Notes: a model not told the origin generated them from the letters alone. Positions 12,754 through 63,987 are shown, counted from the stretch's first letter. The stretch is DNA of 64,000 nt from a virus (IMGVR_UViG_2681813421_000002:1-64000); one strand, 5' to 3'. A program made the numbers and translations.

Positions 12754-12770
12754 TAGTTTTCTAACACAAA
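12754..12770 (+). promoter_or_regulatory. Operator-like motif TAGTTTTCTAACACAAA upstream of 12782 gene
   Basis: Member of dispersed TCTAACA-core motif family (12 or more copies in window), all intergenic. Confidence 0.5.
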
Positions 12771-12781
12771 TCATTAGAGTT

Positions 12782-13174
12782 ATGGCGTATCGAATCTTTG
12801 TTTCGTATAAAAATGGCGCTAAGAGCCACTCTCTGAACACAACAAGTCGCTTTCTTGTTGAGGCGCAGTTGGCATCAATTCTTGCCGAAAGTGAGATACT
12901 CTCGCTCGCTGAACGGATCGTTATCCAGTTTTCTGGTAGAGATATACTCAATGTCCCCGCTCTCACCCCGGCCTCCGAAGTTATGGAATCAATTAAATGG
13001 CCTGTATGCGGATGTCCTGCCAGGGTTGAAGAACCGGTAACTGCAACGCTCTACATGCCGAAAGCTGTAAGAGATTGGCTTGCTATGGTTGGCAATGGGA
13101 AAGTCAGTGCTGGACTTCGCAAGTTAATTGAAATGGCAGATATTCCTGAGTTAAAAAATGCATGGCGACAATGA
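12782..13174 (+). CDS. Hypothetical protein, operator-controlled
   Basis: 130-aa ORF directly downstream of operator motif; no family recognised. Confidence 0.45.
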   Translation: MAYRIFVSYKNGAKSHSLNTTSRFLVEAQLASILAESEILSLAERIVIQFSGRDILNVPALTPASEVMESIKWPVCGCPARVEEPVTATLYMPKAVRDWLAMVGNGKVSAGLRKLIEMADIPELKNAWRQ

Positions 13175-13190
13175 GTAAACAAGGGACAAA

Positions 13191-13649
13191 ATGAGTCACG
13201 TTAACCCATCAAAAACACAATATCGCTTAATGCTGGCGATCGCGTCAGCTATACCAACCAGCCTGAATCCCCCGGCAGGCTATCCCACTGTTGTTGATGA
13301 TTGTTTTCAGTATTACGGAGAAGACATCCTGAGCCAGTCAAAAGCGCTCAAGCAGTTATGTAAGGCAGGTATTCTTCACTGTATCGGAGATCCGGACGAT
13401 TTTGTTGTTATGCTGGCGGATCGTGACTCTTTTCTACTGTCCTGGAAAGCTGGTGCGCGCGAAGCACGTTTGGGGAATGGTATTGGTTACATAGACTATA
13501 GCGATTGTCCGCTGGCATTTGCTGGTGGATATATGCATTGGCATGAGCGAAATAGGGGCCGTCAGCGTCAGTATCGTTTGAGTGACTTTAACGTCTGTCA
13601 CGGTTTCGAAGAAGCTGACAGCCAGGACATCTGGCTTCAGGAGCCTTGA
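13191..13649 (+). CDS. Hypothetical protein
   Basis: 152-aa ORF, 17 bp after previous gene. Confidence 0.45.
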   Translation: MSHVNPSKTQYRLMLAIASAIPTSLNPPAGYPTVVDDCFQYYGEDILSQSKALKQLCKAGILHCIGDPDDFVVMLADRDSFLLSWKAGAREARLGNGIGYIDYSDCPLAFAGGYMHWHERNRGRQRQYRLSDFNVCHGFEEADSQDIWLQEP

Positions 13650-13969
13650 TCCCCCTTCCCTTCCCAAATCTCCCTGTTTCTTTGGTTATTCAGTGCGTTT
13701 CGTTGGTTGCATTCGTCGATCGTGCTGAATAACTGTTCAGCGTATGTCGGATACTTGTTTAACAGCACTGGCGTGTCTTCTGGCACTAAACAAGGGGAGT
13801 AATCAATCAGATTTGCCTGCGGCCTGCTGGTGGCTTCTACGGTAATTTTCACTGGCACGCTGGTTGATGGCTTTTGCCCGTTCCCGCTGCATCCTGATAA
13901 CGTCATCAGGCACACGCACATCGTTAATCCCAGCACGGCGTAACGCATTTTCAAGGCGAGTGATTTCAT
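13637..13969 (-). CDS. Outer-membrane lipoprotein, o-spanin (Rz1-like) candidate
   Basis: Signal peptide with lipobox LSGC; overlaps 3' part of i-spanin gene in another frame; true start probably internal (about 13948). Confidence 0.45.
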   Translation of the reverse strand: MKSLALKMRYAVLGLTMCVCLMTLSGCSGNGQKPSTSVPVKITVEATSRPQANLIDYSPCLVPEDTPVLLNKYPTYAEQLFSTIDECNQRNALNNQRNREIWEGKGDQGS

Positions 13970-14276
13970 TCTGGCTTTCCTCCCGTTGTTTGATTAGGTT
14001 GGCATTCAGTTCTGCTGTTTTGCGCTGGTACTCCTTTTCCAGTGCTTTAATTCTTTCGTTTTCGGTCAGCATGGCTGAGCGAGCGTTCTCACTTAACTGT
14101 AATGCGGTAGAAAGCGTGTTGTTCGTGCTTTCCAGTTGTGATTTTGAGTCTTCAAGCGATCGGACATACCTGATGTGTTCGATAACTGCCGTCGTTGTTC
14201 GGTAAATTCCAGAAATGGCTAAAAGCGCAATTACAATCAAAATTATCTTTTTCAAAACCATCCTCTTCAGGTTCAT
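13803..14276 (-). CDS. i-spanin (Rz-like) lysis protein candidate
   Basis: N-terminal transmembrane helix followed by long coiled-coil; overlapping lipoprotein partner. Confidence 0.55.
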   Translation of the reverse strand: MNLKRMVLKKIILIVIALLAISGIYRTTTAVIEHIRYVRSLEDSKSQLESTNNTLSTALQLSENARSAMLTENERIKALEKEYQRKTAELNANLIKQREESQNEITRLENALRRAGINDVRVPDDVIRMQRERAKAINQRASENYRRSHQQAAGKSD

Positions 14277-14331
14277 TTTTGGTGTTAAACATGTGCCAAT
14301 TCACATCCTTTTGTGTTCCTAAGTGGTGTTG

Positions 14332-15135
14332 CTATGGTTCCTTTTTGGTGTTCTTTTGGAGCGCATCGATAACGCCTTGTGGCATGATTAAACTGATTGC
14401 CGGACTCATTACTGCATCATCCAGTAGAGAACTAGTTAACGTGATGGCGACAGCGTTCTCTAAACCTTTGGTTGCCTGAGTGGTTGACGTTTTAATGCGA
14501 CCTGTAAGGGCTACGACACTCTCACTTGCTGAGTTAATTTCGGAGAGTAAAACTTCGGCGGCTGTCACTGCTTCCCGTAAAGCATCAATTTCATCCTGAG
14601 TAATGACTGGAGCCTGAGCGCCCCCAGCACCACCCTGTCCACCATTGCTATTACCACCAGCGCTTCCAGCAGCTTCTATTTTTGCGTTAATGGCGTTCAT
14701 GGCGGTTTTCAGAGCATCAAGTTTTAGCGCCGTCAATGCGTCCGTTAGAGATTGCGGAATGGAAACATTCCCCATTCCCTCAACAAGGGCGAAAGCAGGT
14801 ATGGGGGTCAGCTCGTTACCTTTTGCGTAGCATTCCCAGCCAATCTTCATCTGTAACAGCTCTGATGGCTTGGTGTATGGGGAAAGAGAATCAGCCAGTA
14901 ATGAAGACGCTTTGCTGGCCTCATTGAGCTGTTCAGAAAAGCCAAGCAATTGAGTAGTCCAGGCCGAAACAGAATCAGGATAGGTTTTATCGGCGAGAAC
15001 TATTCCCTGTATGGCGCTGGCGAGTGATGAGGCTTTTACAGACGCTGCCCGGCTTATGGTTATAGATTCTGGTGTAGAGATACCGGCATCTGACAGAATT
15101 TTGAAGGCTTTAACTTCACCTATTGAATCAAGCAT
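14332..15135 (-). CDS. Baseplate/tail fibre-associated protein, unassigned
   Basis: Likely start is ATG at 15135-15133 overlapping PAAR stop (TAATG); Gly/Ala/Ser-rich. Confidence 0.45.
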   Translation of the reverse strand: MLDSIGEVKAFKILSDAGISTPESITISRAASVKASSLASAIQGIVLADKTYPDSVSAWTTQLLGFSEQLNEASKASSLLADSLSPYTKPSELLQMKIGWECYAKGNELTPIPAFALVEGMGNVSIPQSLTDALTALKLDALKTAMNAINAKIEAAGSAGGNSNGGQGGAGGAQAPVITQDEIDALREAVTAAEVLLSEINSASESVVALTGRIKTSTTQATKGLENAVAITLTSSLLDDAVMSPAISLIMPQGVIDALQKNTKKEP

Positions 15136-15419
15136 TATGCAACCTGAAAAATATCCTCGCCGTTGGCGATAACAGAACCACAAGAAAGCGGATCGCCTAC
15201 ACAGACAACTCCCTTTCCACCTATCGAAAACCATACTCGCGTCGATACAGCTGCCCCTGGATGTGCACTGTTACCGTCAGTGTGACTGGGAAACATGGCA
15301 CCATCTACAACAATTGGCTTACCGTTAACGGTGAACCAGGGAACAGTTTCAGCTACCAGTCGCGGCGGAAATCCTCCGTGACCAGAACAAAGGGTGTCGC
15401 TGGTGGCTATTGCGCTCAT
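15135..15419 (-). CDS. PAAR-repeat protein (tail spike tip)
   Basis: 94 aa with PAAR-like pattern CSGHGG...VNGKP...GD...CG... Confidence 0.6.
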   Translation of the reverse strand: MSAIATSDTLCSGHGGFPPRLVAETVPWFTVNGKPIVVDGAMFPSHTDGNSAHPGAAVSTRVWFSIGGKGVVCVGDPLSCGSVIANGEDIFQVA

Positions 15420-15489
15420 TCTTCACCTCCGGGTTATCCTCCTATTGTCATCACTTTGTTATTTCATCATTCAAACTGAGAGTTAAATT

Positions 15490-15670
15490 TCGGAATATTT
15501 CTGTATTCTCACTTCATTCTCAAATAAATCTCACTGTCAGACCATAATTCATTGGGTGATTAAGATATTCTCAAAATGAACTCAATAATCACTCTTTTTT
15601 TATCTCTTTTGGTGTGGATTTTTGGGTGCTTCTCTTTTAAAATTGCATTTTGATTCTCAAATGTGTCTCA
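15490..15670 (+). repeat. parC: parC-like centromere: 5 or more TTCTCA repeats upstream of parM
   Basis: TTCTCA/TTCTCT copies at about 15498, 15517, 15568, 15629, 15655 in AT-rich leader. Confidence 0.55.
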
Positions 15671-15686
15671 GAAGTGGAGCAAGAAG

Positions 15687-16643: not shown

Positions 16644-16650
16644 CGAGGTA

Positions 16651-16995: not shown

Positions 16996-17013
16996 CAGAA
17001 GATGTGCTGGTTT

Positions 17014-18204: not shown

Positions 18205-18472
18205 AGTCTTTCAGGGTGGTTTTAGAACTTAAAAAATCTTGAACCAAAGATGCACCAATACACCACTAATTTGGTGCACCTTTACATCCTTTTTGGTCCC
18301 AATTGTGTACCATTTGTCATTAATTTACTTATGCGCAAAAGTGGGCTTCATGAAAAAGCTCATTATTGAAATAACGATAGAAAGCAATTTCTAATCAACT
18401 AGTGGTTGTCAGCCTATTCGGCTTATAAGATCATACGCTGTTATACGTTTTTTACGCTTTGAGGAATCCACA

Positions 18473-20134
18473 ATGAGTGAGGCAGAAGCCCGCCCGACTA
18501 ACTTTATTCGTCAGATCATCGATGAAGATCTGGCAAGTGGTAAGCACACCACAGTACATACCCGTTTCCCGCCGGAACCGAATGGCTATCTGCATATTGG
18601 TCATGCGAAATCTATCTGCCTGAACTTCGGGATCGCCCAGGACTATAAAGGCCAGTGCAACCTGCGTTTCGACGACACTAACCCGGTAAAAGAAGATATC
18701 GAGTACGTCGAGTCGATTAAAAACGACGTTGAATGGTTAGGTTTTCACTGGTCTGGTAACGTCCGTTACTCCTCCGATTATTTTGATCAGCTCCACGCCT
18801 ATGCTGTTGAACTGATCAACAAAGGCCTGGCGTATGTTGACGAACTGACGCCGGAACAGATCCGCGAATACCGCGGCACCCTGACGCAGCCGGGTAAAAA
18901 CAGCCCGTACCGCGATCGCAGCGTTGAAGAGAACCTGGCGCTGTTCGAAAAAATGCGTGCCGGTGGTTTTGAAGAAGGTAAAGCCTGCCTGCGTGCGAAA
19001 ATCGACATGGCGTCGCCGTTTATCGTGATGCGCGATCCGGTGCTGTACCGCATTAAGTTTGCTGAACACCACCAGACTGGCAACAAGTGGTGCATCTACC
19101 CGATGTACGACTTCACCCACTGCATCAGCGATGCGCTGGAAGGTATTACGCACTCTCTGTGTACGCTTGAGTTCCAGGACAACCGTCGCCTGTACGACTG
19201 GGTGCTGGACAACATCACCATTCCTGTTCACCCGCGCCAGTACGAATTCTCGCGCCTGAATCTGGAATACACTGTGATGTCCAAGCGTAAGCTGAACCTG
19301 CTGGTGACCGACAAGCACGTTGAAGGCTGGGATGACCCGCGTATGCCGACCATTTCCGGTCTGCGTCGTCGTGGTTACACTGCGGCTTCTATTCGTGAGT
19401 TCTGCAAACGCATCGGCGTGACCAAGCAGGACAACACCATTGAGATGGCGTCGCTGGAATCCTGCATCCGTGAAGATCTCAACGAAAATGCGCCGCGCGC
19501 AATGGCGGTTATCGATCCGGTGAAACTGGTCATCGAAAACTATCAGGGCGAAGGCGAAATGGTCACCATGCCGAACCATCCAAACAAACCGGAAATGGGT
19601 AGCCGTCAGGTGCCGTTTAGCGGTGAGATTTGGATCGACCGCGCCGATTTCCGAGAAGAAGCTAACAAGCAGTACAAACGTCTGGTGCTGGGTAAAGAAG
19701 TGCGTCTGCGTAATGCTTACGTCATTAAGGCTGAACGCGTGGAGAAAGATGCCGAAGGTAATATCACCACCATCTTCTGTACTTATGACGCCGACACCTT
19801 AAGCAAAGATCCGGCAGATGGTCGTAAAGTGAAAGGCGTTATTCACTGGGTGAGCGCGGCACATGCGCTGCCGGTTGAAATCCGCCTGTACGATCGTCTG
19901 TTCAACGTGCCGAACCCAGGTGCTGCGGATGATTTCCTGTCGGTGATTAACCCGGAATCGCTGGTGATCAAACAAGGCTTTGCTGAACCGTCGCTGAAAG
20001 AAGCGGTAGCGGGTAAAGCATTCCAGTTTGAGCGTGAAGGTTATTTCTGCCTCGACAGCCGCCATTCTACGGCGGAAAAACCGGTATTTAACCGCACCGT
20101 TGGACTGCGTGATACCTGGGCGAAGTTAGGTTAA
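18473..20134 (+). CDS. glnS: Glutaminyl-tRNA synthetase
   Basis: 553-aa product colinear and near-identical to E. coli GlnS as recalled (HIGH motif [19 protein letters not shown]-type VMSKR); upstream 18360-18472 matches recalled native glnS promoter/leader. Confidence 0.95.
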
Positions 20135-20160
20135 TAGGTATTTCGCCACATGAAAAAGTA

Positions 20161-20186
20161 AACGCCGCTACTGCGGCGTTTTTTAC
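20161..20186 (+). terminator. Rho-independent terminator of glnS
   Basis: AACGCCGC-tact-GCGGCGTT hairpin plus TTTTTT; dmt stop abuts on opposite strand. Confidence 0.75.
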
Positions 20187-22477
20187 TTCATTATTGCAAT
20201 TATATCGTTAGCAACTACACGTGTTGACGCCTTGCAGGAAACCGACCGTCTGGCTGCCATATGATGTACTTTAAACCCGTTTCCTTCATATAGTTCACGG
20301 ATGTTTGGTGCACCACTATTTGTAATCACTACCTTAGCGCCGCGCTGGTGGGCTTCCACCAATAGAGATACCAGCCGTTTCTGTTCGTCGAAACGGAAGC
20401 TATTTCCTGAATAACTGGTAAACCCTTCTGTATCCGGCAGCGGTTCATACGGCGGATCGCAAAAAATCACATCTCCTTCACCAGCCGCCTCGATGACGCC
20501 AGCAAAGTCACCTGATACAAAGGACGTGTTTTTGAGTACGTCATCAGCCAAAAATGCCTCCATCTCTGCATGTGGGAAGTAGGGCGCTTTGTATTTGCCA
20601 TACCCCACGTTGAACTCGCCATTTTGGTTGTACCGCGTTACGCCATTAAAACAGTGCCGATTAAGGTACAAAAAGGCGGCAGCATGATGTAGCTGGTCAT
20701 ACTTTCCTCTGTTAAATGCCTCACGCACTTCGAGGTAAGCGTCAGCGTTGTTGTAATTTTGGAAAAAACTATATGACAGCGTGACGAGCGAATGTCCTTC
20801 TCGCTGCAATGTCTGATAGAAGTTAATCAGGTCACCGTTAATATCATTAAGCAGGTTGTGGCGAAATCCTGCATTCGTAAATACAGAACCGCCACCAACG
20901 AACGGTTCTATTAACCGCTTGCCGTGTGGTAGATGCTCAAGCACTGTAGGCAACTCTGAGAATTTACCGCCTACCCATTTGAAGATCGGACGCTCATATT
21001 CATCCGGAGTCCGGAGTTTTCTTGTGTAGGTAATGGTATTTATTGTTTTTGGCTGTTTAGCTTCCACAGTCGCAAGAATGCGACACCCAATCCATTGCAT
21101 AACAGGAACTGCCATGCTGTTGCCAATCGCTTTGTAACGCGGCCCGTCAGCAGCGAGCATCGCGGCCTCTTCTTCGCTTAAATCTGGATAGTGATTGCGA
21201 AGGTATGCCAGTTCATCTGAGGAAATTGTTTTACGCTTTTCCGTAGGGATCAACGTATGCCCATCAGGAAAACCTTGCAGCCTTTCACATTCGACAGGGG
21301 TAAGACGGCGGACAGCTACTTCTGCGTTTCTTACTTCATAGCAAACGGCTGTTGGATTTTGAGCCATTAGAGATGGTGAAGTATTCTTAGTTGCAGCATG
21401 TTGTGTACCGCTCATACGCTCAGGAAAAGCTAATGTAACAAGATGCTCATGGCTTTCTTGCTCACGCGCCCGCAATGTACCATGCCCCTCTGACCAAAAA
21501 CCTGCTCCTGTGCTGCTAAAAACGGCAAGGTCAGTGGCATCTTTAAAGTCTCTTGCCTTTACTGTCGATGCGGTTTCATCGTCAATATATTCCCCAAATG
21601 CCGCCATCCTGAAAGCGTTTACGGCTTTCGTCGATTTCATACCGGGGGGCATGTCAGCGTGTAGGCATGGATTTAGGCTTTCGCCACTGATTGCAGCGCC
21701 ATTTGCAATAATGGCGGAAGCGATTTCCTTCTTTTTTCGGCTCGGCGCAATATTCCGGCGCACGCCTTCGAACTCAAAAAGTATCGTTGCGGGATCGAGG
21801 TCTGTTCGAGCACTTGCGACAACAAACACGCGTCGGCGTCGTTGCGCCACTCCGAAGTATTGGGCATCAAGGATTCTCCAGGCCACTTTTCGCTGCGGTC
21901 CATAAATACAACCACACTGCGGCCACTTTGGAGCATGGCAACTGGTTTTGACATCCCACCGCCAGAACGCGTTACTTTTTCGCGATTCAGGTCGAGCACC
22001 TGGTTCGAATGGCGCATCTTCTCCAGCCAATCCGGCAAGGAAACATCCGAAGGCGTTATCTGCCGATGACAAGACTCCTGGGACATTTTCCCAGACGATA
22101 ACGGCTGGTTTGAGAAATGACTCAGCCCGTTTGTCGTCAATTGCATTTGCAAGCTCCACATACTTTAAAGTTAGCGCGCCACGCTCATCATCAAGCCCAC
22201 CACGTAATCCAGCGATACTGAATGCCTGACAAGGTGTTCCCCCGACGAGCACATCAGGGGATTCGATTTCCCCAGCCAGGACTTTTTTGGCAAGTTTTGT
22301 CATATCGCCAAGGTTGGCGACATGGGGCCAGCGGTGCGCAAGAACGGCAGATGGAAAAGGCTCGATTTCAGCAAACCACGCCGGACGCATACCCAACGGT
22401 TCCCAGGCAATGCTCGCTGCTTCAATTCCACTGCAAACTGAACCATATCTAAGGTTAACGTTCTGCTTCACCACCAA
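20183..22477 (-). CDS. dmt: Bifunctional DNA methyltransferase: N-terminal C5-cytosine MTase fused to C-terminal Dam-like N6-adenine MTase
   Basis: N-terminal motifs SGIE/FxGxG-like, PCQ ([11 protein letters not shown]), ENV (ENVPG), [16 protein letters not shown]; C-terminal FVGGGS and DPPY; 764 aa. Confidence 0.85.
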
Positions 22478-23371: not shown

Positions 23372-23406
23372 TGTGTTAGAAAATACATATTAATTATCTA
23401 ACACAA
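23372..23406. promoter_or_regulatory. Palindromic operator pair TGTGTTAGA-N17-TCTAACACA upstream of rdgC-dmt
   Basis: Two inverted copies of the TCTAACA core in the 60-bp leader of rdgC. Confidence 0.5.
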
Positions 23407-30224: not shown

Positions 30225-30417
30225 AACAAAGCCTCTCAGTCATAACCTGGTGGAAACTGTATGCAGGGTGTGAAATGCGAGAAACAGACAGGCCACCAGT
30301 TCAGGGGGATGTGGTTCATAAATCCCCTCACTGGTGACAAGTGACTTTCATTAATCTTTATGCGGGGGCCAGCTTCATTTGCTGGCATTAGATTAAAAAT
30401 TAAACGGAGTGAATGAC

Positions 30418-34039: not shown

Positions 34040-34327
34040 GCAGCCTCCTTTTGCTAATTTAAGGAGCTACCGCGTGAGGTTCCAATCTCAATGGCGGTAG
34101 CACTGACTGGGTTGGAACTACCGGCGCAAAAGGGAACCGGCCTGCCTTTCGGCAGCCCAGCCAGCACTACCATTGATCTCTGAGCTAAACGCTACGTATG
34201 GCTGTGCGATGGCATGACACAAGAAAAGACGCTTTCGGCGTCTGTGTCGCCTTTTGCATTATCCGGGGTTCCAATCCCGGCACCCGTTTTTCTAAGGTGC
34301 CGTAGAAATATACCCCACGATAATGCC
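34040..34327 (-). other. ORF-free structured region between two small immI-like ORFs
   Basis: Multiple mutually complementary GC-rich segments (AGCTACCGCG/CGCGGTAGC pairs etc.); no plausible ORF. Confidence 0.3.
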
Positions 34328-34495: not shown

Positions 34496-34835
34496 TTGAG
34501 GTAGCGAACAGTCATTTTGACTCCCCCAGCGCGAATAAAGAATGCAGATTATCGCGTGAGTGGTGGACGACGAGTGATGGGAAAAGACTGTAGTTGTTCA
34601 TAGTGTAGTGACTCCTTGCTTTCGGAGCCGCCATCGACTGTTCCACGGTCTGGTGGCGGCGCAATAAAGGCTGGAACACCGTGAGTCAACGGGGGCTTTT
34701 CAGCCACCTATATTGCACCGCCATAGGTATGGCGGGGGCAATAATACGAAAAACTAAACAGTTTGTCTCAAAAAGTTGACCGGTGTGCCAATCGGTAGTG
34801 AATGTACATCGGAGAAATTTACAATTCAACTTAAA
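34496..34835 (-). ncRNA. Long structured 5' leader, candidate c4-like antisense regulatory RNA
   Basis: About 330 nt between operator motif and small ORF, several hairpins (GCCATACCTATGGCGG, GCCGCCACC...GGTGGCGGC); analogous to P1 immI where c4 RNA precedes icd-ant. Confidence 0.25.
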
Positions 34836-34837
34836 AT

Positions 34838-34851
34838 GTTAGAAAACTAAT
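34838..34851 (-). promoter_or_regulatory. Operator-like motif (TTAGTTTTCTAACA on minus strand)
   Basis: TCTAACA core, heads the immI-like transcription unit. Confidence 0.5.
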
Positions 34852-35425
34852 TTATTAATTCAATCGCCATCTGATACAACGCCATTTCATCGGCATTGTG
34901 CCGTATGAAATCTGCTTTTCCGCCTATTTTTCCATCAGCATGAACAGGGACCAGCCAGGGATATTGTTCTCGGACCTCGGCTGGCGCTGCGTACTGGTGG
35001 TGCCATTTACACAAAGGGAGGACATATTTATGTGCGTTCTCTGCCGTTCTCCCGAAGATATGGTGCAGGGATACCACTGGGCTATGTTGCCCGTGAATAT
35101 GGCAGGCAATGCAGGGGAGAGTACCGATAGCGGTCTGTATCCGGCGTTCATCGGCTGTGAGTGATCTGCCCTTCAGGCCGCGTGACGTGCGTGTTTTTTT
35201 GGGCGGAGCGGATACAGCTTTATCTTTTCTCCGCTGTTCATATTGCTTTGCTTTTTCAATTTTCTTTTGCCGATATTCAGGCGATGCGGCTTTTTCTCTC
35301 GCTCGCTGCTGCTGGCGTTGAGCTTGTTGAAGGCGCTTTGCCCTTTGTTCCTCTCGCCAGGCTGGGTCAGCCAATTTTTGCATGGCTTTTTGTCTCTGTT
35401 TCTCCCAATAGCTCTGTTTCTGCAT
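34847..35425 (-). CDS. Ref-like HNH endonuclease (P1 ref-like)
   Basis: Highly basic low-complexity N-terminal half plus C-terminal Cys/His cluster CIACHIHGQH...HHIFG...CKWHH typical of HNH; operator motifs on both flanks (P1 ref is C1-controlled). Confidence 0.5.
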   Translation of the reverse strand: MQKQSYWEKQRQKAMQKLADPAWREEQRAKRLQQAQRQQQRAREKAASPEYRQKKIEKAKQYEQRRKDKAVSAPPKKTRTSRGLKGRSLTADERRIQTAIGTLPCIACHIHGQHSPVVSLHHIFGRTAENAHKYVLPLCKWHHQYAAPAEVREQYPWLVPVHADGKIGGKADFIRHNADEMALYQMAIELIN

Positions 35426-35489
35426 GATGGCTGCCTCTTACTTTTCAGCTATTTTTCTATGATTGATCAAAACAGTTAGATATTCAAAA

Positions 35490-35509
35490 TTGATTTTCTA
35501 ACACAAAAC
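35490..35509 (+). promoter_or_regulatory. Operator-like motif TTGATTTTCTAACACAAAAC
   Basis: TCTAACA core in divergent intergenic region between the Ref-like gene and plus-strand operon. Confidence 0.5.
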
Positions 35510-40018: not shown

Positions 40019-40060
40019 TCAAATCATTTACGCACTCAAAATCACATTAGAACATTGATT

Positions 40061-40080
40061 TTAGTTTTCTAACATATTAT
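40061..40080 (+). promoter_or_regulatory. Operator-like motif TTAGTTTTCTAACATATTAT
   Basis: Near-identical 18-mer also at 61634 and 62892. Confidence 0.55.
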
Positions 40081-50965: not shown

Positions 50966-51022
50966 AGCACCCTCCTAAATAGGCGAGGGTACTTTACAGC
51001 AAAGATGTTAATCTAAAAAGAT

Positions 51023-51038
51023 GTGTTAGAAATTTAAT
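51023..51038 (-). promoter_or_regulatory. Operator-like motif (AAATTTCTAACACA on minus strand)
   Basis: TCTAACA core between cre 3' end and operon 50965-47344. Confidence 0.5.
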
Positions 51039-52067
51039 TTATAAATCCATCAGGCGGCTATTAGCCCCCACAGACACGCCGCCACGGCGCAGATACCGCA
51101 TAAGTGTTTCCGGTTTCTTCCAGGTTCCTTCCTGCATAATCTCCACCATAGAGACCTGCTTTTCAGCCATATCGATAGCGGCCCCGACGCGTGCACTATG
51201 CCCGGTCCACGTCCGGTATCTTCCTTTGTTTGGCGTAGCATCTCCTTTATTCAGCAACACCCAGGCGTCGCTGAATATTTTCTCCATTGCAGGTGCAGTA
51301 AGGGGCGTTATCGTGATCCTGGCCTTATTGCTACGGTGTATCGGCGGGAACAGCACTGCGTCAGGATGTTCGCGAAGCCCGGAAACATCCAGCCAGTCAT
51401 TCAGCACAGCGGTAGTGCGACGGGAAAGCACCTTATCAAGCCCGGCGGCGGTCGTTATTGTCTTCGTGTGTGAAATATGTAGCGTGACAGTGTCACCTGT
51501 TTGGTCCAGATCTCCTACACGAATACGCGAGATTTCCGACATACGCATCAGCGTATTGTATGCAACAAAGAGAAAAGCCCGGTTGCGCAGGTCCACCAGC
51601 CGTTCAGACCTGGACAACAGGACGTCGAGCAGTTTCAGATCGTCCCACCGCAGCGGTATAGCCTGGCCTGTTCGTTCGCCTTTTTCAGTTGCCGCTTCGC
51701 GCCGGATGCGCCGCATAGCCAGAGAAACACTTTTATCATCCGAAAGTGGTGGAAGGCCACAATGCGAAAGCAGCATGTTCAGCATGGCGTAGTGCTTATC
51801 AATGGTGGTCGAAGCCAGATCGGCATCATGCAGCTGAAGAAAATACTCGCGGGCCATTTCTGGTGAGATCGGAAACCAGGCAAGCTGGCGAGCGTGACAC
51901 CAGCGCGCCCAGGAATGAAACACCAAACGGAGGTCGCGCAGAGTATTCGGCGCATAAGCTCCCTGGTCATTCATGAACCGCATAAAGTTTTCTGCGGCTT
52001 CCTGGTACTCTTTGCCAATGTTGCGCAGAAAACCACCGGAACTGCCAGAGATAATTAATTCACCCAT
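51039..52067 (-). CDS. cre: Cre-like tyrosine site-specific recombinase
   Basis: 342 aa colinear with P1 Cre as recalled (VSLAMRRIRRE, IRNRAFLFVAYNTLMRMSEISRIRVGD, GHSARVGAAIDMA, catalytic Tyr region LMRYLRR). Confidence 0.9.
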   Translation of the reverse strand: MGELIISGSSGGFLRNIGKEYQEAAENFMRFMNDQGAYAPNTLRDLRLVFHSWARWCHARQLAWFPISPEMAREYFLQLHDADLASTTIDKHYAMLNMLLSHCGLPPLSDDKSVSLAMRRIRREAATEKGERTGQAIPLRWDDLKLLDVLLSRSERLVDLRNRAFLFVAYNTLMRMSEISRIRVGDLDQTGDTVTLHISHTKTITTAAGLDKVLSRRTTAVLNDWLDVSGLREHPDAVLFPPIHRSNKARITITPLTAPAMEKIFSDAWVLLNKGDATPNKGRYRTWTGHSARVGAAIDMAEKQVSMVEIMQEGTWKKPETLMRYLRRGGVSVGANSRLMDL

Positions 52068-52252: not shown

Positions 52253-52433
52253 AAAATGCCGATTTTTTTTAATCCATCATAGATTGATGATGACCAGTAA
52301 CACGTTGCCTTCATGGTCTTTAATTTGCGAAGTGTGGTTTCTACGGTTGGTTTTCTAAAATTGATGACAAAAAATCACAGTTCGATCCTTTACTCACCCT
52401 GTTATTCGACATAAATTTGTCATAGTAATTTTA

Positions 52434-52450
52434 TGTTAGAAAACTAAATC
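52434..52450 (-). promoter_or_regulatory. Operator-like motif (TTTAGTTTTCTAACATAA on minus strand)
   Basis: TCTAACA core immediately upstream of 52462 gene. Confidence 0.5.
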
Positions 52451-52461: not shown

Positions 52462-53499
52462 ATGAGTAAGAAGTCGATCGAGAAAGAGTACAAACGGTTC
52501 CTGCAAACCGCTGAACGGTGGAAAGAGCTGGTGGTCGCAAACTCTGTTTTCCATGATACCAGTTATGCTGGCGAGGAATTCCGCCATGTTGCATTAACGC
52601 ATGACCAAAACATATTAGAAGAAGCTGAAAAATGTCTTGCTGAATGGAAAGCCTTCGTTGACATGTGCCGCGATGCCGACGGCAAAGCGTCGAACATTGT
52701 TGAGTCTGTATATTCTCCGATCCCATTCATCATTGAGGACACCAATCAAAGCACGCATGTCGTTGTGCAAAGCGCTACAACAACACGTACATTTACACGT
52801 GAACAATTGCTAAAAAAATACGACAAAATCATAAAGAAAAGCCTGAAAAATAGGGTTTTTTCTCAAATCGTAGGTGCTCTTGAAGAAGAACAGCGCTTCT
52901 TTGAAGCTGAGCCTGAAGGCGAGATCTACCGGGCGCGTAAAGAGGCATATACAGATGTTGTGCTGACAACAAACATCGAAGGCAGCAATGCCCTTTCTCG
53001 CTTTAGAGTTGGCGCACATGGCGCATTGGTTTTCGCAAGACTACCGAAGACAACGATCCCCGTTGTCAATAATGTTGGTGAACGCCGGAGCATTACAATT
53101 TATTCTGGCGTCGAATCGGTACCATGCAGCCTTCTCGGCGATTTTAACTTATATCGTGTTCGTGACCTGGAAAAACACCAGCCAAGCTACGTTGCGAAGT
53201 CGTACATCTTAAGGAACATCGATATTCGCAATGAAAGCCTTAAGCAGAAATCCGCTAAGATGCTGGAGGATGCCGATCCGGCTATTCGCCATATCATTGA
53301 ACGTAAGATACGTACATCACGTGAAGCAATGGCAAGGTTGGATAAAATGGATCTGGAATTGTTAGACGTAATGATGGCCTCTGGAGACGACCTGACCGGC
53401 ATTAAACTGAATGAAGCTCGTAAAAAATACGGCAAAGCAATCGAAGAACGTTACGGATACACATTCCCCCAAACGCAGTACGCCGCGAAGCTCTGGTAA
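52462..53499 (+). CDS. Hypothetical protein at the P1 c1 position (candidate immunity/regulatory protein)
   Basis: 345-aa ORF between lox-cre and pacB, convergent with pacB, operator motif in leader; no recognised similarity to P1 C1. Confidence 0.45.
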   Translation: MSKKSIEKEYKRFLQTAERWKELVVANSVFHDTSYAGEEFRHVALTHDQNILEEAEKCLAEWKAFVDMCRDADGKASNIVESVYSPIPFIIEDTNQSTHVVVQSATTTRTFTREQLLKKYDKIIKKSLKNRVFSQIVGALEEEQRFFEAEPEGEIYRARKEAYTDVVLTTNIEGSNALSRFRVGAHGALVFARLPKTTIPVVNNVGERRSITIYSGVESVPCSLLGDFNLYRVRDLEKHQPSYVAKSYILRNIDIRNESLKQKSAKMLEDADPAIRHIIERKIRTSREAMARLDKMDLELLDVMMASGDDLTGIKLNEARKKYGKAIEERYGYTFPQTQYAAKLW

Positions 53500-53527: not shown

Positions 53528-55036
53528 TTATATATCCAGATCCGGCATTTCGATATCCGCCAGAACCTGATCTCGGAAAGTTGCCATTTCGGCACCAATA
53601 TCTTCATTAGCAGGCACATAGTCCACCAGCATAGTGAAGCAGTAGGTATCCCATCGGTCAGGCGATTTGATGTTTAGCTTTTGCCGCATGTGCTCTTTGC
53701 GCATCATCGCCATTTTCCCTTCCTCATTCAGTAAAAAGGGGATTTTTGACGCTTGCTCTGCCGTTTTAGGGTCACTGTCTATCCGCATACGCCCTGACTT
53801 TATGGCATCACGCGCCATAATATTTGCGTAGGCACGCTGATTAACAAATCGCTCCCTGTCTTTGTTCGCAAACATGGGTTTTCCCCACCGAATACGTACC
53901 GGGTTCGCACCACGACGTACCAACTGCGCACACGTATCAGAACCAAAACCATCGGCATCAACCGCGATTGTTATATTCGGGTATTTTTCCGGCGTACATT
54001 CGTTATATATAAAGTCAGCAAAGGCCAATGGGTCCATAGTGCCAGGCATCTCCATTACCTTAAAGTTAACAACGCGCCGCTTATCCCTGTGACCAGATAC
54101 CTTGCAGATGTTGAGGACCGACTTATCTCGCCCATTACCAACGTCAGCCGTTGCCACCCATCCCCAGTTTTTCTCCAACAACACCTTGCGGCGAGCAGCG
54201 CGATCGCATTCATCACGACCAAGCAAATAGCCGTTAATTTCTCGTGGGAACTGACCAAGCACCTTGACCATATACTCAATAGAATCGCGCCCACCATATT
54301 CCAGAAGCTTCTGCCTGATGAATTGTGGTGTGACGAACGGTGATTCTTCCGAGTTAAGAACAATTGCTGTCCAGATCCCTTTCGGGTTGTCTGGGGTTTT
54401 TGCTTGAGAATGGTGCGAATCGTAGAAATAACCACTTGGCCTTGTTGGCTGGGATAGCATCAACATCCGGTTATCTTCTTCAGTAAGAGCACCGGTCATT
54501 ACGCCGATCGCCTTATCAGATATACCAGATGCTTCATCCAGAATTAGAAGCAAATGTGCCGCATGTTCCCCCGCCAGCGCTTCTTCGTTGCCGAGTCGAT
54601 AACCTTTGCAGAGAACTTCCCAAATCCCCTTACGGGAGCGCTCATAAAACATGGTGTCAGAGAGGACAAAATAGGTCTGCAACCACCCATGACGCTTAAC
54701 TGCATTCGCCCAATACTGTTTAACGTATTTGAATACGCCTGTTTTTACCTGGCCTATCTTGTTAGCAACAATGATGACACGGGCATCGGGGAACAGGATC
54801 ATAAAAATCAACAGCAACATCGCGGTAAGGGACGACTTCCCAGTTCCGTGTCCGGACGTGACGGTCGTCCTACTCCCCGTTTCCTGCACGGACTGAATGA
54901 TCTGCTGCTGCTGGTGGGAGGGGAACATCCCAAAAATATCGACAACAGCCTGGGTAAAGTTGTAGCGGTATTTGATTACCATATCGCGCCAGCGTGGATC
55001 GCTGGTGACGCATTTAATCTTGCGCCCTCCAGCCAT
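53528..55036 (-). CDS. pacB: Terminase large subunit PacB
   Basis: Walker A SGHGTGKSS, Walker B LLLILDEASGI, C-terminal nuclease-domain length; directly downstream of pacA. Confidence 0.85.
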   Translation of the reverse strand: MAGGRKIKCVTSDPRWRDMVIKYRYNFTQAVVDIFGMFPSHQQQQIIQSVQETGSRTTVTSGHGTGKSSLTAMLLLIFMILFPDARVIIVANKIGQVKTGVFKYVKQYWANAVKRHGWLQTYFVLSDTMFYERSRKGIWEVLCKGYRLGNEEALAGEHAAHLLLILDEASGISDKAIGVMTGALTEEDNRMLMLSQPTRPSGYFYDSHHSQAKTPDNPKGIWTAIVLNSEESPFVTPQFIRQKLLEYGGRDSIEYMVKVLGQFPREINGYLLGRDECDRAARRKVLLEKNWGWVATADVGNGRDKSVLNICKVSGHRDKRRVVNFKVMEMPGTMDPLAFADFIYNECTPEKYPNITIAVDADGFGSDTCAQLVRRGANPVRIRWGKPMFANKDRERFVNQRAYANIMARDAIKSGRMRIDSDPKTAEQASKIPFLLNEEGKMAMMRKEHMRQKLNIKSPDRWDTYCFTMLVDYVPANEDIGAEMATFRDQVLADIEMPDLDI

Positions 55037-56789: not shown

Positions 56790-56868
56790 TAATCCCCCAG
56801 GCAGGAAATGACCGAGGGGATGATAATGAGAATGTTATTTCTGTATAGACTGGCAAAAAGTTGGTTAT

Positions 56869-56898
56869 ATTAGAAAATTAATTCCATTCATCTAACAC
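56869..56898. promoter_or_regulatory. Operator-like motifs (ATTAGAAAAT and TCTAACAC) upstream of lpa
   Basis: Two partially inverted TCTAACA-type cores in 100-bp leader. Confidence 0.45.
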
Positions 56899-57290
56899 TA
56901 CCAGCGAGATAAGCGAACGACGTGTTTTACCTTAGCGATCCACTTACCACGTGAGTTATTAATTACGGCCTGCGCCACCTTTAAGCTGACTTCAAAATCA
57001 GCCTTACGACCATCAGAATCCACCAGCGTTGCACCGTCTATTTCCGGCAGGCTTAAATAATCCTGTTCTACCTCTAATGGCATTGACGGCTCTCTGAATG
57101 GTGTCAATTGCCGAGCTTTCCAGATAAAGCGAACTCTCAATCCCCTATAAGCCATTACCATGTAGCCTGTTATCGTGCTCTTATGGCCTGCATCAGTACG
57201 CGCAGCATTACACGATACAATCTTACAGGTGACGATATTCCACTCCACATTGGATACTTCGTGAATGCTTAATTTTGTGGTCTCGTACAT
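56898..57290 (-). CDS. Hypothetical protein
   Basis: 130-aa ORF. Confidence 0.45.
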   Translation of the reverse strand: MYETTKLSIHEVSNVEWNIVTCKIVSCNAARTDAGHKSTITGYMVMAYRGLRVRFIWKARQLTPFREPSMPLEVEQDYLSLPEIDGATLVDSDGRKADFEVSLKVAQAVINNSRGKWIAKVKHVVRLSRW

Positions 57291-59466: not shown

Positions 59467-59728
59467 CCTCTCACTCCATTATTTAACGAATAAAAAAGCT
59501 GCGGTGCCGGGTACCTCCCGGTGTCCTTTGGCTGGTTATCCACCGTGGACGGGGAAACAAGGAGAAATGAATGGACTGATATAACCATTTCCCCGCGTGC
59601 GCTTAGCCGCATTCACCGCAATGGTAAGAGCACTTGGCTGGCTGGGCGGCGATGACGCCTGTACGCATTTGGTGATCCGGTTCTGCTTCCGGCATTCGCT
59701 TAATTAGCCAAATACTCTTAACGTTGCA

Positions 59729-59815
59729 CTGGCGGAGAGTAATGGAATCGAACCATCATCGCTTGCGCAATGGGACGGTTTTCAAGACCGCTTGAGCACC
59801 ATGCTCCCTACTCTC
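59729..59815 (-). tRNA. tRNA-Ser (anticodon UGA)
   Basis: 87 nt, long variable arm, anticodon loop CUUGAAA, encoded CCA. Confidence 0.85.
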
Positions 59816-60188
59816 CCGTTATTGTGGCGACCGGTGCTGATCTCCGGCTTGCGGTTATTTCAGACTCTCACGGGCGTTTAATTGCCCCGCCGAACAGCTC
59901 TTTTCCGCAATAGCTGCAATGTCTTTCGCGCATCAGCCTGCGCATTCACCACAATGTTGAGAACACTGGTTGTCACGCTGCAACGCAACATTTATTCATA
60001 GATTGGGATATGACCCCGTTACGCCAGTGTTCTCAACGTTGTAGTGCCGGTTACGGTTCCGGCCAGGCCTCTTCCTCAACGGGGTGTTCTCCATACGGAC
60101 TACCGTTTATTGGTCGTTCCTGCGGTTTATGTTGTGAAGCCAGATGCTTATCTTCTGGTTGCTTCAAAGAGCTGCACTTCATCACAAC

Positions 60189-60262
60189 GGTAAGGGTACT
60201 TCGTAGGGATTCGAACCCTCTGCCAAGCACGGCGATCTCCGACGTCGCAAAATACCCTTACC
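60189..60262 (-). other. tRNA-like fragment (T-arm GGTTCGAATCC with 7-bp terminal pairing, no canonical D/anticodon arms)
   Basis: GGTAAGG...GAGGGTTCGAATCCCT...CCTTACC; fails cloverleaf, no CCA. Confidence 0.35.
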
Positions 60263-60270
60263 TGTTGTGT

Positions 60271-60347
60271 TGGTGCCGGTTAACGGACTCGAACCGCTGA
60301 CATCCTGCTTACAAGGCAGGCGCTCTACCAACTGAGCTAAACCGGCA
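60271..60347 (-). tRNA. tRNA-Thr (anticodon UGU)
   Basis: Cloverleaf with anticodon loop CUUGUAA and encoded CCA. Confidence 0.8.
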
Positions 60348-60348
60348 T

Positions 60349-60425
60349 TGGCGATGGTGGGTGGATTCGAACCACCGACCGACAGCTTAGAAGGCTGCTG
60401 CTCTATCCTACTGAGCTACACCATC
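60349..60425 (-). tRNA. tRNA-Arg (anticodon UCU, reads AGA)
   Basis: Anticodon loop CUUCUAA, T-loop GGTTCGAATCC, encoded CCA; 1 nt from tRNA-Thr. Confidence 0.85.
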
Positions 60426-60429
60426 ACTT

Positions 60430-61630
60430 GCCGGGTACGTCTCCGGCGAGGGCTTCCACCTCCGTATGCTTTTCGGCGCACCGCGCCCTGGCTGCAATTC
60501 GGTAACAGGGGATGCACAACCCTGGCTTCCAGCGTGATTAGCGCCTTCAGCATGACGGGATATACCCGTAGTAGGATGTTATCCCAGAAAGCCATTAATC
60601 AATGGCTGTTACGCGGGAGGGACGTAACAGGTAAGGGCGCTGACCAGAAAGACCTGACCCTTCTCATTCATCTGGTTAATCACACCAGCACCCTTGCCTG
60701 TTATGCCTCCCCGTTCCCTAATACACAGACGGGGACACTCTGCGGTCGATTTTTTGACGGGGGACGACTCATACCCCGTGGCGTCAGGCTTCTTAGGCCG
60801 CTACCATCATCAGATCATCGTTTGCATTTACTTTAATGGTCGGGTTCTAAACCGCCGCAAAGTCGCTAACCATGACGAAAACCCTAAAAAAGCCCACCCG
60901 AAGATGGGCAAATACGCTACATCTCACACAAGAAAGAAGCCGACTGCCTGAGCTGGATTCACTTTCAAATGCCCGCTGAAAGGGATCACAAGTCGGCTTC
61001 TTTCTTGATGCGGCACTCTCTCCGCCCGTCACCGCTCTGTCTCGGTTGTCGCGTTTGCCACGCCAGCCGTAACGAGGTTTAAAGTCTTTGCACGTTTCCA
61101 TCACTCGACTGCCGTCTGTGGCTGTTCGTTGCAGCGGGGGTGCCTCCCCCTGGGGATATCCCCGGCCTTACCCCATTCTTTCAAGACACAATGCAAGGCC
61201 ACATCCGCATAGGTGCATTACTGCAACATTAAGGAGACTCAGGGCAAAAGGTAACCGCCACAAAAATCCCTATGCCTCCTTAATGTTGAAGACGTGCATT
61301 GATGATTAGATGCAGCATGTACCGTTACTCTCTGCCGGACCATCATCAATGAACACCTTAAAAAGACCTTCCGTGGCTCAACATGTATTGTCGTTTACTC
61401 CGCAAAGTGCTCTCTCTGAAACCACTTTCCGCACTAAACCTGCTGAACTTTGGCCTGCACGGTGCCAAAGCGTGCTCTTGCGTTACTACACTTTTCTAAC
61501 ACTTTAATTTGTTAAATGCTGGTGGGCAAACAATAACCAATAAGTGACTATCAAGCCCAGCAAGCGAAACGTGGGTACCGCCCACCAGCAAGGAAAATTC
61601 TATGTTAAGTTACCTTCACAATCAATACAT
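60430..61630. other. About 1.2-kb ORF-free, GC-rich structured region (candidate large ncRNA or regulatory locus)
   Basis: No convincing ORF on either strand; 17-bp perfect inverted repeat CAAGAAAGAAGCCGACT...AGTCGGCTTCTTTCTTG at 60931-61009; many shorter hairpins. Confidence 0.3.
61493..61512 (+). promoter_or_regulatory. Operator-like motif CACTTTTCTAACACTTTAAT
   Basis: TCTAACA core. Confidence 0.45.
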
Positions 61631-61633
61631 TCG

Positions 61634-61656
61634 AATTGTGAATTTAGTTTTCTAAC
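61634..61656 (+). promoter_or_regulatory. Operator-like motif TTTAGTTTTCTAACATATTATTT
   Basis: Near-identical to sites at 40061 and 62892; at 3' end of 61660-62868 gene. Confidence 0.5.
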
Positions 61657-61659
61657 ATA

Positions 61660-62868: not shown

Positions 62869-62891
62869 TGCTGTTCCCGTTACCTTGTTAA

Positions 62892-62913
62892 ATTAGTTTT
62901 CTAACATATTTTA
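62892..62913 (+). promoter_or_regulatory. Operator-like motif ATTAGTTTTCTAACATATTTTA
   Basis: In 5' leader of the 61660-62868 gene. Confidence 0.55.
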
Positions 62914-62947
62914 TTAGTTTGATGACGGTATCGGAAGATGCAATAAA

Positions 62948-62977
62948 CAAAAAACCCGCTAATTGGCGGGTTTTTAT
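62948..62977. terminator. Bidirectional Rho-independent terminator
   Basis: A-run, ACCCGC-taattg-GCGGGT hairpin, T-run. Confidence 0.7.
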
Positions 62978-62981
62978 GCAA

Positions 62982-63296
62982 TTACTGTGTTGCAGCCTGA
63001 TAAATAAGATACGCGATAAATACAGGTACGATGGCCCATTGCAGCAATGAAAGTAGCCTCATTACTGTTATTGGGGTAACTCCATCCACGTATTGTTTCT
63101 CTGACATTTTCCCTAACCAACTAACCGACAACAGTGCCGAGTTTTCACCCAATTCCAGCTCTCTGAGAGCTTCACGGATTAACGGCGCTGTCACAGCCTT
63201 AACCGGTGTGCTCAACGTGATACTCCGCGTCCTCCCCGCATCGTCAGCGAACGCCAGACTCACATAATATTTTTTGCTCAATGTACAAACTCCCAA
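62982..63296 (-). CDS. Small protein with C-terminal TM helix
   Basis: 104 aa ending in hydrophobic VPVFIAYLIYQAATQ; followed by terminator. Confidence 0.45.
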   Translation of the reverse strand: MGVCTLSKKYYVSLAFADDAGRTRSITLSTPVKAVTAPLIREALRELELGENSALLSVSWLGKMSEKQYVDGVTPITVMRLLSLLQWAIVPVFIAYLIYQAATQ

Positions 63297-63478
63297 TCAT
63301 CAGCGCTTGCACTTTCCGGGGTTATGTGAACCTTATCGCCAGTAACAATATTGCGAGCTTCAAAACTTCCATTGATACGTTTCGAGATCTCAATACATAG
63401 AGCCTGCTGCCATGAGCGACGACGAGCGATAGCATTAGTTCCTGCAGGGATAAGTTCTGCCACGTTAAGTAAACGCAA
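63278..63478 (-). CDS. Hypothetical small protein
   Basis: 66-aa ORF overlapping downstream gene by 19 nt. Confidence 0.35.
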   Translation of the reverse strand: MRLLNVAELIPAGTNAIARRRSWQQALCIEISKRINGSFEARNIVTGDKVHITPESASADDWEFVH

Positions 63479-63492
63479 AACGATTTCTCCGT

Positions 63493-63987
63493 TTAATCAA
63501 GACAAACATACTCCGTGATAGCTTTTATGGCTTCAGCGGCACTGCGCGCCTCAAAGCAGTAGTAACCGGCTTCAGTGAGGCGAGTCATCCAGACGAGTTG
63601 TTCGGGAGTCAGGCGATTTCTCCCATGTTTCATCTCAATGCGCATTCCGTGGTATCCCCCACAAGCAAGGTCTATAGAAAGATCGGGGTATCCCTTCTTT
63701 TGGCCCTCTGCCACCATTTTTATTGCCGTCCTTATGCCTCGCAGGCCACCGTTTGGAGTGGCGTGAGTATGCTCATACACATAACGCATATTGCGATACA
63801 ACCAGTCCAGGACGCGAACCTGCTCGTAATGCTCATGGTTCCTTTTGATTAGATCTGGGTTTTTCTCCAGTTCTCTAAGAGCTGCGGCATGTGGGGATGT
63901 TTCAGAATATTCACTGCGACGCCTTCTCTTTTGCGCTATTTTTCTAACACACTCATTGATAGTAAATATGCGAAATAATAACAACAA
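63493..63987 (-). CDS. VRR-NUC domain nuclease-like protein
   Basis: GYPDLSIDL...GMRIEMKHGRNRLTPEQLVWM resembles VRR-NUC PD-(D/E)xK core; true start probably internal, downstream of operator at 63937. Confidence 0.5.
   Translation of the reverse strand: MLLLFRIFTINECVRKIAQKRRRRSEYSETSPHAAALRELEKNPDLIKRNHEHYEQVRVLDWLYRNMRYVYEHTHATPNGGLRGIRTAIKMVAEGQKKGYPDLSIDLACGGYHGMRIEMKHGRNRLTPEQLVWMTRLTEAGYYCFEARSAAEAIKAITEYVCLD
63937..63954 (+). promoter_or_regulatory. Operator-like motif TATTTTTCTAACACACTC
   Basis: TCTAACA core near 5' end of VRR-NUC ORF. Confidence 0.4.

Follow-up and report, generated by a model that had tools for sequence, protein, structure and literature searches.

A short asymmetric motif, TTTTCTAACA, is repeated throughout a stretch of viral DNA of 64,000 nucleotides (nt) (IMGVR_UViG_2681813421_000002:1-64000; the window, below, means this whole stretch), and we interpret it, at a probability of about 85%, as the operator set of a D6-type C1, the master lysogeny repressor of the P1-related plasmid prophage to which the window belongs. 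Judged by its identity of 96-97% to Escherichia phage D6, a P1-related plasmid prophage, and likewise to many E. coli plasmids, the window is a D6-like relative of P1 and itself a plasmid prophage, corresponding to D6 coordinates ~41.5-91.2 kb together with 1-11.4 kb. Phage-plasmids of the D6-like kind are frequent in E. coli, Salmonella and Klebsiella, and a plasmid search with a 14-kb query from the window returned 95 records with at least 80% query coverage. Neither D6 GenBank record has any operator annotated, and a full-text literature search for D6 operators and for the motif string returned nothing relevant; the D6-type operator set is new relative to the database records and literature covered, with the primary D6 papers, in which a prior description is possible, lying outside that coverage.

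The repetition of the motif is real. The exact 9-mer TTTCTAACA occurs in 11 copies on the two strands of the window, compared to 0.64 expected, and none of 100 dinucleotide shuffles reached 11; the 16-mer proposed in an initial annotation of the sequence, searched with up to three mismatches, gave 14 matches compared to 1.03 expected. Alignment of 12 copies yielded an asymmetric information profile with a useful length of ~17-19 nt and the consensus AAATTAGTTTTCTAACAYA, in which T-CTAACA is invariant and the preceding T-run nearly so, with a semi-conserved TTA(G/A) further 5' and YA on the 3' side. A 19-nt matrix built from these 12 sites found 13 matches of at least 15 bits, all of which score at least 18 bits, compared to 0.25 in shuffled sequence, and the best score in 200 shuffles averaged 13.3 bits. 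As this matrix is circular for its own training sites, the 9-mer count serves as the independent statistic. The initial annotation had named an equal frequency in shuffled sequence as evidence against its reading, and neither the 9-mer count nor the matrix shows one.

In total, 13 strong sites and 4 weak ones were mapped over the 64 kb of the window, a dispersed and asymmetric set like the ~20 operators of ~17 bp in a P1-type C1 system, and unlike a cluster of palindromic operators. Complete D6 carries 15 sites that score 19 bits or more, with weaker partners in addition, and two of its strong sites fall outside the window, upstream of repL and of a second icd-antirepressor locus. While at least 85% of the window is coding, 12 of the 13 strong sites avoid coding sequence, apart from overlaps of 2-7 nt with a stop codon. 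Four sites have an opposite-strand partner at a fixed 15-nt offset between the 19-mers, in a divergent arrangement with 22 bp from core to core; the partners score 23.3 and 26.1 bits at hrdC, 10.5 at lpa, 7.1 at ref/orf88 and 4.2 at pdcB (15.2 in D6), where only about 0.02% of positions reach at least 5 bits in the 19-nt matrix. The pair previously noted at 23372/23398 is a true divergent pair of this kind, with the same geometry as that at 56869/56891. One 16-mer, TTAGTTTTCTAACATA, is identical in four copies, at 40061, 52432 (- strand), 61644 and 62893. The positions first given for the motif were all right except 61634, which is really 61641-61659 with its 16-mer at 61644; similarly, the near-identical repeat claimed for 40061, 61634 and 62892 does exist, with the third copy at 61644 and a fourth, at 52432 (-), to be added.

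The C1 repressor

The presumed binder of the motif is encoded by c1 (52462-53499, + strand), a D6-type master repressor gene of 345 amino acids (aa) whose product is 100% identical to D6 C1. In precomputed Pfam assignments, PF27008 (Phage_P7_repressor_C1) is present on the C1 cluster representative and on all D6-type and P1-type homologues. Comparison of the D6-type and P1-type C1 profiles with hhalign gave 97.2% probability (E 3.9e-11, 230 columns, 19% identity), and tblastn aligned D6 C1 to P1 C1 at ~21% identity. The gene has the immC position between the pac genes and a recombinase gene (dre - c1 - pacB - pacA - lpa), and this order of recombinase - c1 - pacB - pacA - lpa, as in P1, is kept even where C1 is only 44-51% identical. 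By its shared PF27008 family, profile-profile match and conserved gene order, D6 C1 is a remote homologue of P1 C1; as the two proteins are only 19-21% identical, a distinct binding specificity would be expected and not a variant of the P1 operator.

Relatives of C1 were drawn from the IMG/VR and Logan collections, and a one-genome-per-species scan found none. Searches of PDB sequences and of a Pfam set without the PF27008 model gave no match to C1. PHROGs places D6-type C1 in phrog_1678, labeled "unknown function", and with this label and a Pfam set lacking a C1 model, automatic annotation would miss this master repressor. For the P1 corepressor Lxc and the 69-aa Coi open reading frame (ORF), tblastn against D6 and the window found nothing below E 0.08, and the gap between rox and c1 is just 225 bp. 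Lxc was likewise undetected in an earlier study (PMC6799933).

Comparison with the P1 operators

P1 C1 has 22 dispersed operators with the asymmetric 17-bp consensus ATTGCTCTAATAAATTT, and repL and lpa are among its targets (PMC8546580). The sites in the window match the positions of experimentally defined C1 operators in the annotated P1 genome: the c1 sites (52432-52450 and 52347-52362) correspond to Oc1/Op99, the lpa site to Olpa, the hrdC-dmt site to Odmt, the ref site to Oref, the site at 34835-34853 to Oc4, those at 61485 and 61641 to Oban, and those at 62890 and 63933 to OpmgR and O26/Oppp, while the repL site of D6 corresponds to OrepL. Sites of the D6 type are thus found at the promoters of c1, lpa, repL, c4-icd-ant, ref, dmt, ban/tRNA and pmg genes, as is typical of P1-type systems.

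Despite these shared positions, the sequences differ. A P1 operator matrix reached a maximum of 12.7 bits in D6 or the window, compared to 17-28 bits at true P1 sites, and P1 itself contains 20 P1-type sites of at least 17 bits and a best D6-type score of only 13.7 bits. The D6-type sites do not match the P1/P7 consensus. P1-type operators hidden in the window were considered and rejected, as none was found with the P1 matrix. The loose resemblance to the P1 operator pointed out in the initial annotation amounts to a shared TCTAA core and nothing beyond it; with TCTAA alone shared with the P1 consensus, the sites would have a different specificity and place the element outside the P1/P7 immunity group.

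Sites of the P1 type and of the D6 type exclude each other, and operator type tracks the C1 clade in 34 of 35 related loci. All 33 loci with a D6-type C1 (44-100% identity) contain 2-9 D6-type sites, and 32 of these lack a P1-type site; both loci with a diverged P1-type C1 (53-58% identity) lack D6-type sites and have four of the P1 type each. The one locus that departs from this pattern, L017 (IMGVR_UViG_2711768071_000002), is a D6/P1 hybrid, a D6-type element with a 100% identical C1 that contains P1 67058-69600 at 99.4% identity, and in which the P1 bivalent Oban replaces, at 18431-18458, the D6-type head before the tRNA operon. Either operator and repressor are naturally mismatched in this hybrid, or its assembly is chimeric. 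Elsewhere, regions shared with P1 at 93-96% identity end short of the operator-bearing leaders. For example, window 59928-60912 is 92.9% identical to P1 69844-68855 (ban-operon leader and tRNA region), and the homology ends before the operators, leaving a head that is D6-specific.

The proximal c1 operator (52432-52450, - strand, 27.5 bits) ends 11 nt before the c1 ATG and overlaps the predicted c1 promoter, which has its -35 hexamer TTGTCA at 52417-52422 and its -10 region within the site; a distal half-site (52347-52362, + strand), a 3-mismatch match with TTTTCTAA at 52351-52358, is convergent with it ~80 bp away. In an alignment of the c1 leader from nine elements with C1 proteins 100 to 44% identical, the sole invariant blocks are TTTTCTAA in the distal and TGTTAGAAAA in the proximal site, and the flanks diverge. 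The lpa, orf117 and pmgS leaders likewise show a constant core in diverged surroundings. Both halves of the paired operator are conserved in relatives in the lpa leader, and in the orf117 leader T(T/A)TCTAACA is kept down to 44% C1 identity. In the pmgS leader, ATGTTAGAAAA is kept down to 70% C1 identity, and in an element with 51% identity (L007) a TTTTCTAATAC site is displaced from this position. Between lineages, the 5' half of the motif varies, as in TCTATTTTTCTAACA of L007. An identity of C1 with that of D6, sites at P1-operator positions, clade exclusivity and a footprinted core together support, at the level of sequence, the C1-operator-like interpretation that had been proposed for the motif.

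Sigma-70-like promoter sequences (at least 8 of 12 matches) overlap 11 of the 13 operator locations, compared to 4.8 ± 1.7 for random non-coding intervals, and in several cases the site fills the spacer or covers the -10 hexamer, as seen at pdcB (TTGATT-17-TATTTT), orf88 (TTGATT-16-TAATAT) and c1 (TTGTCA-17-AAAACT). The co-occurrence with sigma-70 elements suggested as a check in the initial annotation is therefore present, in a test that is weak and partly circular. A stricter promoter scan found none at c1. The sites are found in both orientations relative to the downstream gene, which fits an operator and not a promoter element.

In the mechanism that we propose, C1 would bind each asymmetric ~17-19 bp site as a single molecule, with two molecules at each of the four divergent paired sites, and, once bound, would keep the sigma-70 promoters of early and lytic units occluded or blocked. 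C1 as the binder, its stoichiometry and repression by binding are here inferred by analogy. C1 of P1 binds as a monomer. The units repressed would include lpa-pacAB (late-gene activator and terminase), C4-icd-antirepressor, ref, orf88-to-ppp, pdcB-to-pmgU, hrdC-dmt, orf117-dut-isaA, the tRNA operon, pmgS, pmgM-pmgR and orf52-53, as well as repL and the second icd-antirepressor locus in D6. C1 would also keep its own production in check, through the two conserved sites on either side of the c1 promoter. Antirepressor produced from the C4-controlled loci would then lift the repression and release Lpa and lytic replication.

Alternative explanations

Several observations weigh against this interpretation. 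C1 is linked to the sites by co-occurrence, which is confounded with the phylogeny of the whole element, so that the covariation with clade could instead reflect another lineage-specific DNA-binding protein. The core is unchanged across C1 proteins diverged down to 44% identity, meaning that there is no fine-scale covariation of protein and site within the clade. The shuffle statistics of the matrix are subject to the circularity described above, the sites at 61485 and 63933 are weak in leave-one-out scoring, and the promoter predictions are themselves weak (8-9 of 12 matches) and partly circular, as the motif supplies some of the hexamers. Finally, one of the 13 strong sites (63933-63951) is inside the first ~20 codons of annotated pmgM, and the claim that every copy is intergenic, which holds for the other 12, fails there.

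The first two of these points would favor an arrangement in which the motif is bound by some other lineage-specific or host protein, such as an antirepressor-associated regulator, a HigA-type antitoxin or a nucleoid protein, with C1 acting elsewhere. We consider this improbable, as the sites are at the mapped positions of P1 C1 operators, the c1 promoter included, and, for that role, P1 and D6 have no homologous regulator other than C1. HigA genes are also absent from ±10 kb of two of the related loci (L007 and L008), where the sites are still present. We know of no host-factor consensus that is recognizable in the motif.

It is more improbable still that the motif is a promoter element, be it the D6 form of a late promoter that depends on Lpa (-22 box and -10) or a strong -10/-35 module for sigma-70. 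In a gapless hand alignment, 13 of 19 positions of the consensus are identical to the P1 late promoter LPs, a site to which the D6 matrix gives only 10.1 bits, and TAACAT could be used as a -10 hexamer in sites that overlap promoter-like sequences. Against this, the units that the sites precede are early and regulatory ones (c1, lpa, repL, immI, ref, dmt) and not structural operons, the sites point either way with respect to the gene that follows (c1, pmgS, pmgM, tRNA unit), and a P1 late-promoter matrix, for which the only good match is at window 30339-30357, gives them -4 to 12 bits. The TCTAACA sites thus lack the -22 box and -10 hexamer in fixed orientation before structural and lysis operons that define an Lpa-dependent late promoter, and a different motif, AAATCACA-N-ACT, faces the capsid, tail, mat, portal and lysis operons. 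The late-promoter reading was rejected on these matrix scores and on the presence of that separate motif at the late operons.

The second motif is itself dispersed and intergenic, and is followed by a -10-like hexamer. It is found in the window at 4054, 12687, 12742, 26665 and 31357 (GTGATTT on the + strand, read on the - strand) and in D6 at 19215, 25235, 27741 and 38129, pointing toward the capsid, tail, mat, portal, ddr, tail fibre and lysis operons, and probably represents the Lpa-dependent late promoter of D6, for which the -22 box in P1 is AAGTGACTT.

That the copies are passive repeats left at module boundaries by recombination among mosaic phage-plasmids, with no regulatory role, would agree with the 22 identical bases common to the copies at 40058 and 61641, with the breaks in P1-like homology near some sites and with the module exchange in the hybrid L017, but is the least credible of the alternatives, because only a ~10-bp core is kept while the flanks have wholly diverged in distant relatives, which argues for selection on a binding site and not for shared descent of a repeat, and because the bivalent geometry is fixed and the same positions are occupied in elements with 44-51% C1 identity.

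Probable operator sites and the units that they head

The units assigned to the sites in the initial annotation (rdgC-dmt, a Ref-like gene, an immI-like locus, lpa and the operon next to a cre homologue) were correct, and they are detailed here together with the remaining sites. Upstream of lpa-pacA-pacB is a bivalent operator (56866-56899), the analogue of P1 Olpa/Op94, with a strong half at 56866-56884 (- strand, TCTAATA core, 21.4 bits) and a weak half at 56881-56899 (+ strand, 10.5 bits). The lpa product of the window matches the PHROG "Lpa-like activator". The lpa leader also contains, at 56794-56819 (- strand), a conserved 7-bp hairpin with the lpa Shine-Dalgarno sequence as its 3' arm. 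The hairpin is retained in relatives with a C1 as little as 44% identical, shows several G-U changes and one compensatory pair (consensus -11.55 kcal/mol), and may control lpa translation.

At the 3' end of dre, a site of 26.6 bits (51022-51040, - strand) heads orf117-orf116-dut-orf114-isaA and has no assigned P1 counterpart. About 35 nt downstream of it, in the orf117 leader, the sequence TGTAAAGTAC (50978-50987, - strand) is kept in nearly all relatives, and is probably the -10 region of the orf117-dut-isaA promoter. The bivalent operator upstream of hrdC(rdgC)-dmt (23372-23405), the analogue of P1 Odmt/Op68, is composed of sites at 23372-23390 (- strand, 23.3 bits) and 23387-23405 (+ strand, 26.1 bits).

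The immI-like unit isrK - C4 RNA - icd - antirepressor is headed by a site of 27.7 bits (34835-34853, - strand) that overlaps the ref stop codon and is the analogue of P1 Oc4/Op51. Downstream of this operator, Rfam identified the C4 RNA at 34090-34177 (- strand, 76.7 bits) and isrK at 34222-34300 (- strand), and the antirepressor of the locus, of the KilA/Roi type, matches PHROG families. The second icd-antirepressor locus of D6, outside the window, is at D6 19986-20917 and has its own operator at D6 21260. The divergent control region between ref and the orf88-to-ppp unit contains the analogue of P1 Oref (35472-35505), with a strong site at 35487-35505 (+ strand, 26.9 bits) and a weak one at 35472-35490 (- strand, 7.1 bits), overlapped by promoter-like hexamers in both directions.

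Upstream of the pdcB-to-pmgU operon (40043-40076), a strong site at 40058-40076 (+ strand) is paired with a weak one at 40043-40061 (- strand, 15.2 bits in D6), and its 16-mer fills the spacer of the predicted TTGATT-17-TATTTT promoter; no P1 counterpart has been assigned, and homology to P1-like phages ends in ppp, short of this region. A site of 29.7 bits located 14 nt upstream of orf52-orf53 (12750-12768, + strand; D6 54201-54219) has no evident P1 counterpart either, and orf52 and orf53 match PHROGs of unknown function.

The leftward tRNA-Arg/Thr/Ser/Met unit, the genes of which are on the - strand, is headed by an operator of 29.6 bits just 3' of pmgS (61641-61659, + strand), the position analogue of P1 Oban/Op72, and a second, weaker site (61485-61503, + strand) is at the head of the leftward non-coding and tRNA unit, scoring 18.4 bits, or 9.8 when left out of the matrix (21.3 bits for the D6 equivalent). 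Between these operators and tRNA-Arg is a stretch of ~1.1 kb (60430-61480) without a credible ORF, in which Rfam found only a sub-threshold match to permuted tmRNA (60793-60898, 22.8 bits, compared to a 47-bit threshold); the non-coding stretch left of 60912 is common to the P1 ban-operon leader (dicF-like region). The analogue of P1 OpmgR/Op86 is located 7 nt upstream of pmgS (62890-62908, + strand, 29.9 bits). The site at 63933-63951 (+ strand), within the 5' end of annotated pmgM in the pmgM-orf11-pmgR unit, is the analogue of P1 O26/Oppp and scores 19.5 bits, or 11.0 in leave-one-out; there is no alternative in-frame pmgM start downstream of it.

A possible Tus-like fold for C1

An AlphaFold2 model of the window C1 (predicted local distance difference test (pLDDT) 78.8, predicted template modeling score (pTM) 0.46, from a nine-sequence alignment) was compared to the PDB using Foldseek. 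Its sole significant matches were four chains of Tus, the replication terminator protein of E. coli, with E 6.7e-7 to 2.2e-5, probability 1.00 and 273-306 aligned columns, followed by a next match at E 0.047. An independent and poorer model of a P1-type C1 (pLDDT 64.1) also gave Tus chains as its top three matches (E 2.7e-3 to 1.9e-2). Template modeling scores of the C1 models to Tus were low, at 0.2-0.4, for models of moderate to low confidence. No sequence link between C1 and Tus was detected, as PDB profile searches were empty at E up to 10, there was no Pfam match to PF05472, and hhalign gave 0.2% and 0.1% probability; the Tus alignment is shallow (81-100% identity), so that this test is of little power. 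A full-text literature search for Tus with C1 found nothing relevant. We tentatively suggest, at somewhat less than even odds, that the C1 repressors of P1-, P7- and D6-type phage-plasmids may have the fold of Tus, in which DNA-gripping beta strands connect two alpha/beta domains, and be single-chain, clamp-like binders of asymmetric sites.

The Ter site TerB is AATAAGTATGTTGTAACTAAAGT (PMC4499146). The reverse complement of the D6 operator, TATGTTAGAAAACTAA, resembles TerB (TATGTTGTAACTAA) in sharing TATGTT and AACTAA, in a post hoc comparison that needs a 2-bp gap. Like the D6 C1 site, the ~21-bp Ter of E. coli is asymmetric and non-palindromic; Tus-Ter functions in fork arrest, whereas D6 C1 would control transcription at ~20 sites. 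If the fold is correct, the partial likeness of the operator TATGTT-AGAA-AACTAA to Ter TATGTT-GT-AACTAA would reflect conserved contacts, and it would be explained why C1 operators are non-palindromic and mostly single. To our knowledge, Tus has long been regarded as an orphan fold, and C1 would then provide its first relatives, linking a phage repressor family to a replication terminator and making one ask whether polymerases or forks meet a polar block at C1-operator complexes.

Relation to known immunity systems

Overall, the sequences point to a regulon of dispersed operators in the style of P1, which departs from P1 in specificity and in the geometry of its paired sites and has no detectable Lxc or Coi. 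D6 resembles P1 and P7 (~20-22 operators) in that its repressor belongs to their Pfam family and is encoded at the equivalent place in the genome. Its sites are about as numerous and are likewise scattered, asymmetric and for the most part single, with a few in pairs, and it shares with P1 and P7 the controlled classes (c1, lpa, repL, c4-icd-ant, ref, dmt, the head of the tRNA/ban operon and pmg genes) and a TCTAA core. It differs from them in operator sequence, with neither genome having the other's sites, in a C1 that is 62 aa longer, and in the arrangement of paired sites, which diverge at a 15-nt offset here but converge and overlap at P1 Oban. It further differs from P1 in lacking a homologue of the Lxc corepressor or the Coi antirepressor detectable by tblastn in D6 and the window, and in antirepressors of the KilA/Roi type, with two immI-like loci in D6.

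The lambdoid phages (lambda, 434, P22, HK022) follow the same immunity-group logic as D6 and P1, with repressor and operators at homologous positions replaced together. Their few palindromic operators are clustered in one swappable immunity cassette, whereas here ~20 asymmetric sites are distributed over 90 kb, so that a change of immunity would need replacement throughout the genome, and the hybrid L017 would show the mismatch that results. As ~20 scattered operators must match one repressor, the system offers a view of heteroimmune lineages that exchange genes at 93-96% identity with control regions kept lineage-specific. The D6-type operators would define an immunity group apart from P1/P7 and allow automatic annotation and immunity typing of such plasmids, and the operator consensus and site map would define the genes that are silent in the lysogen, among them orf52-53, the pdcB operon, the dut-isaA operon and the tRNA operon.

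A separate feature of the window is a high density of Chi sites (GCTGGTGG) in 42462-63496, with 19 in 21 kb compared to 0.55 expected, and 14-22 in each related locus. Over-representation of Chi has also been reported for P1.

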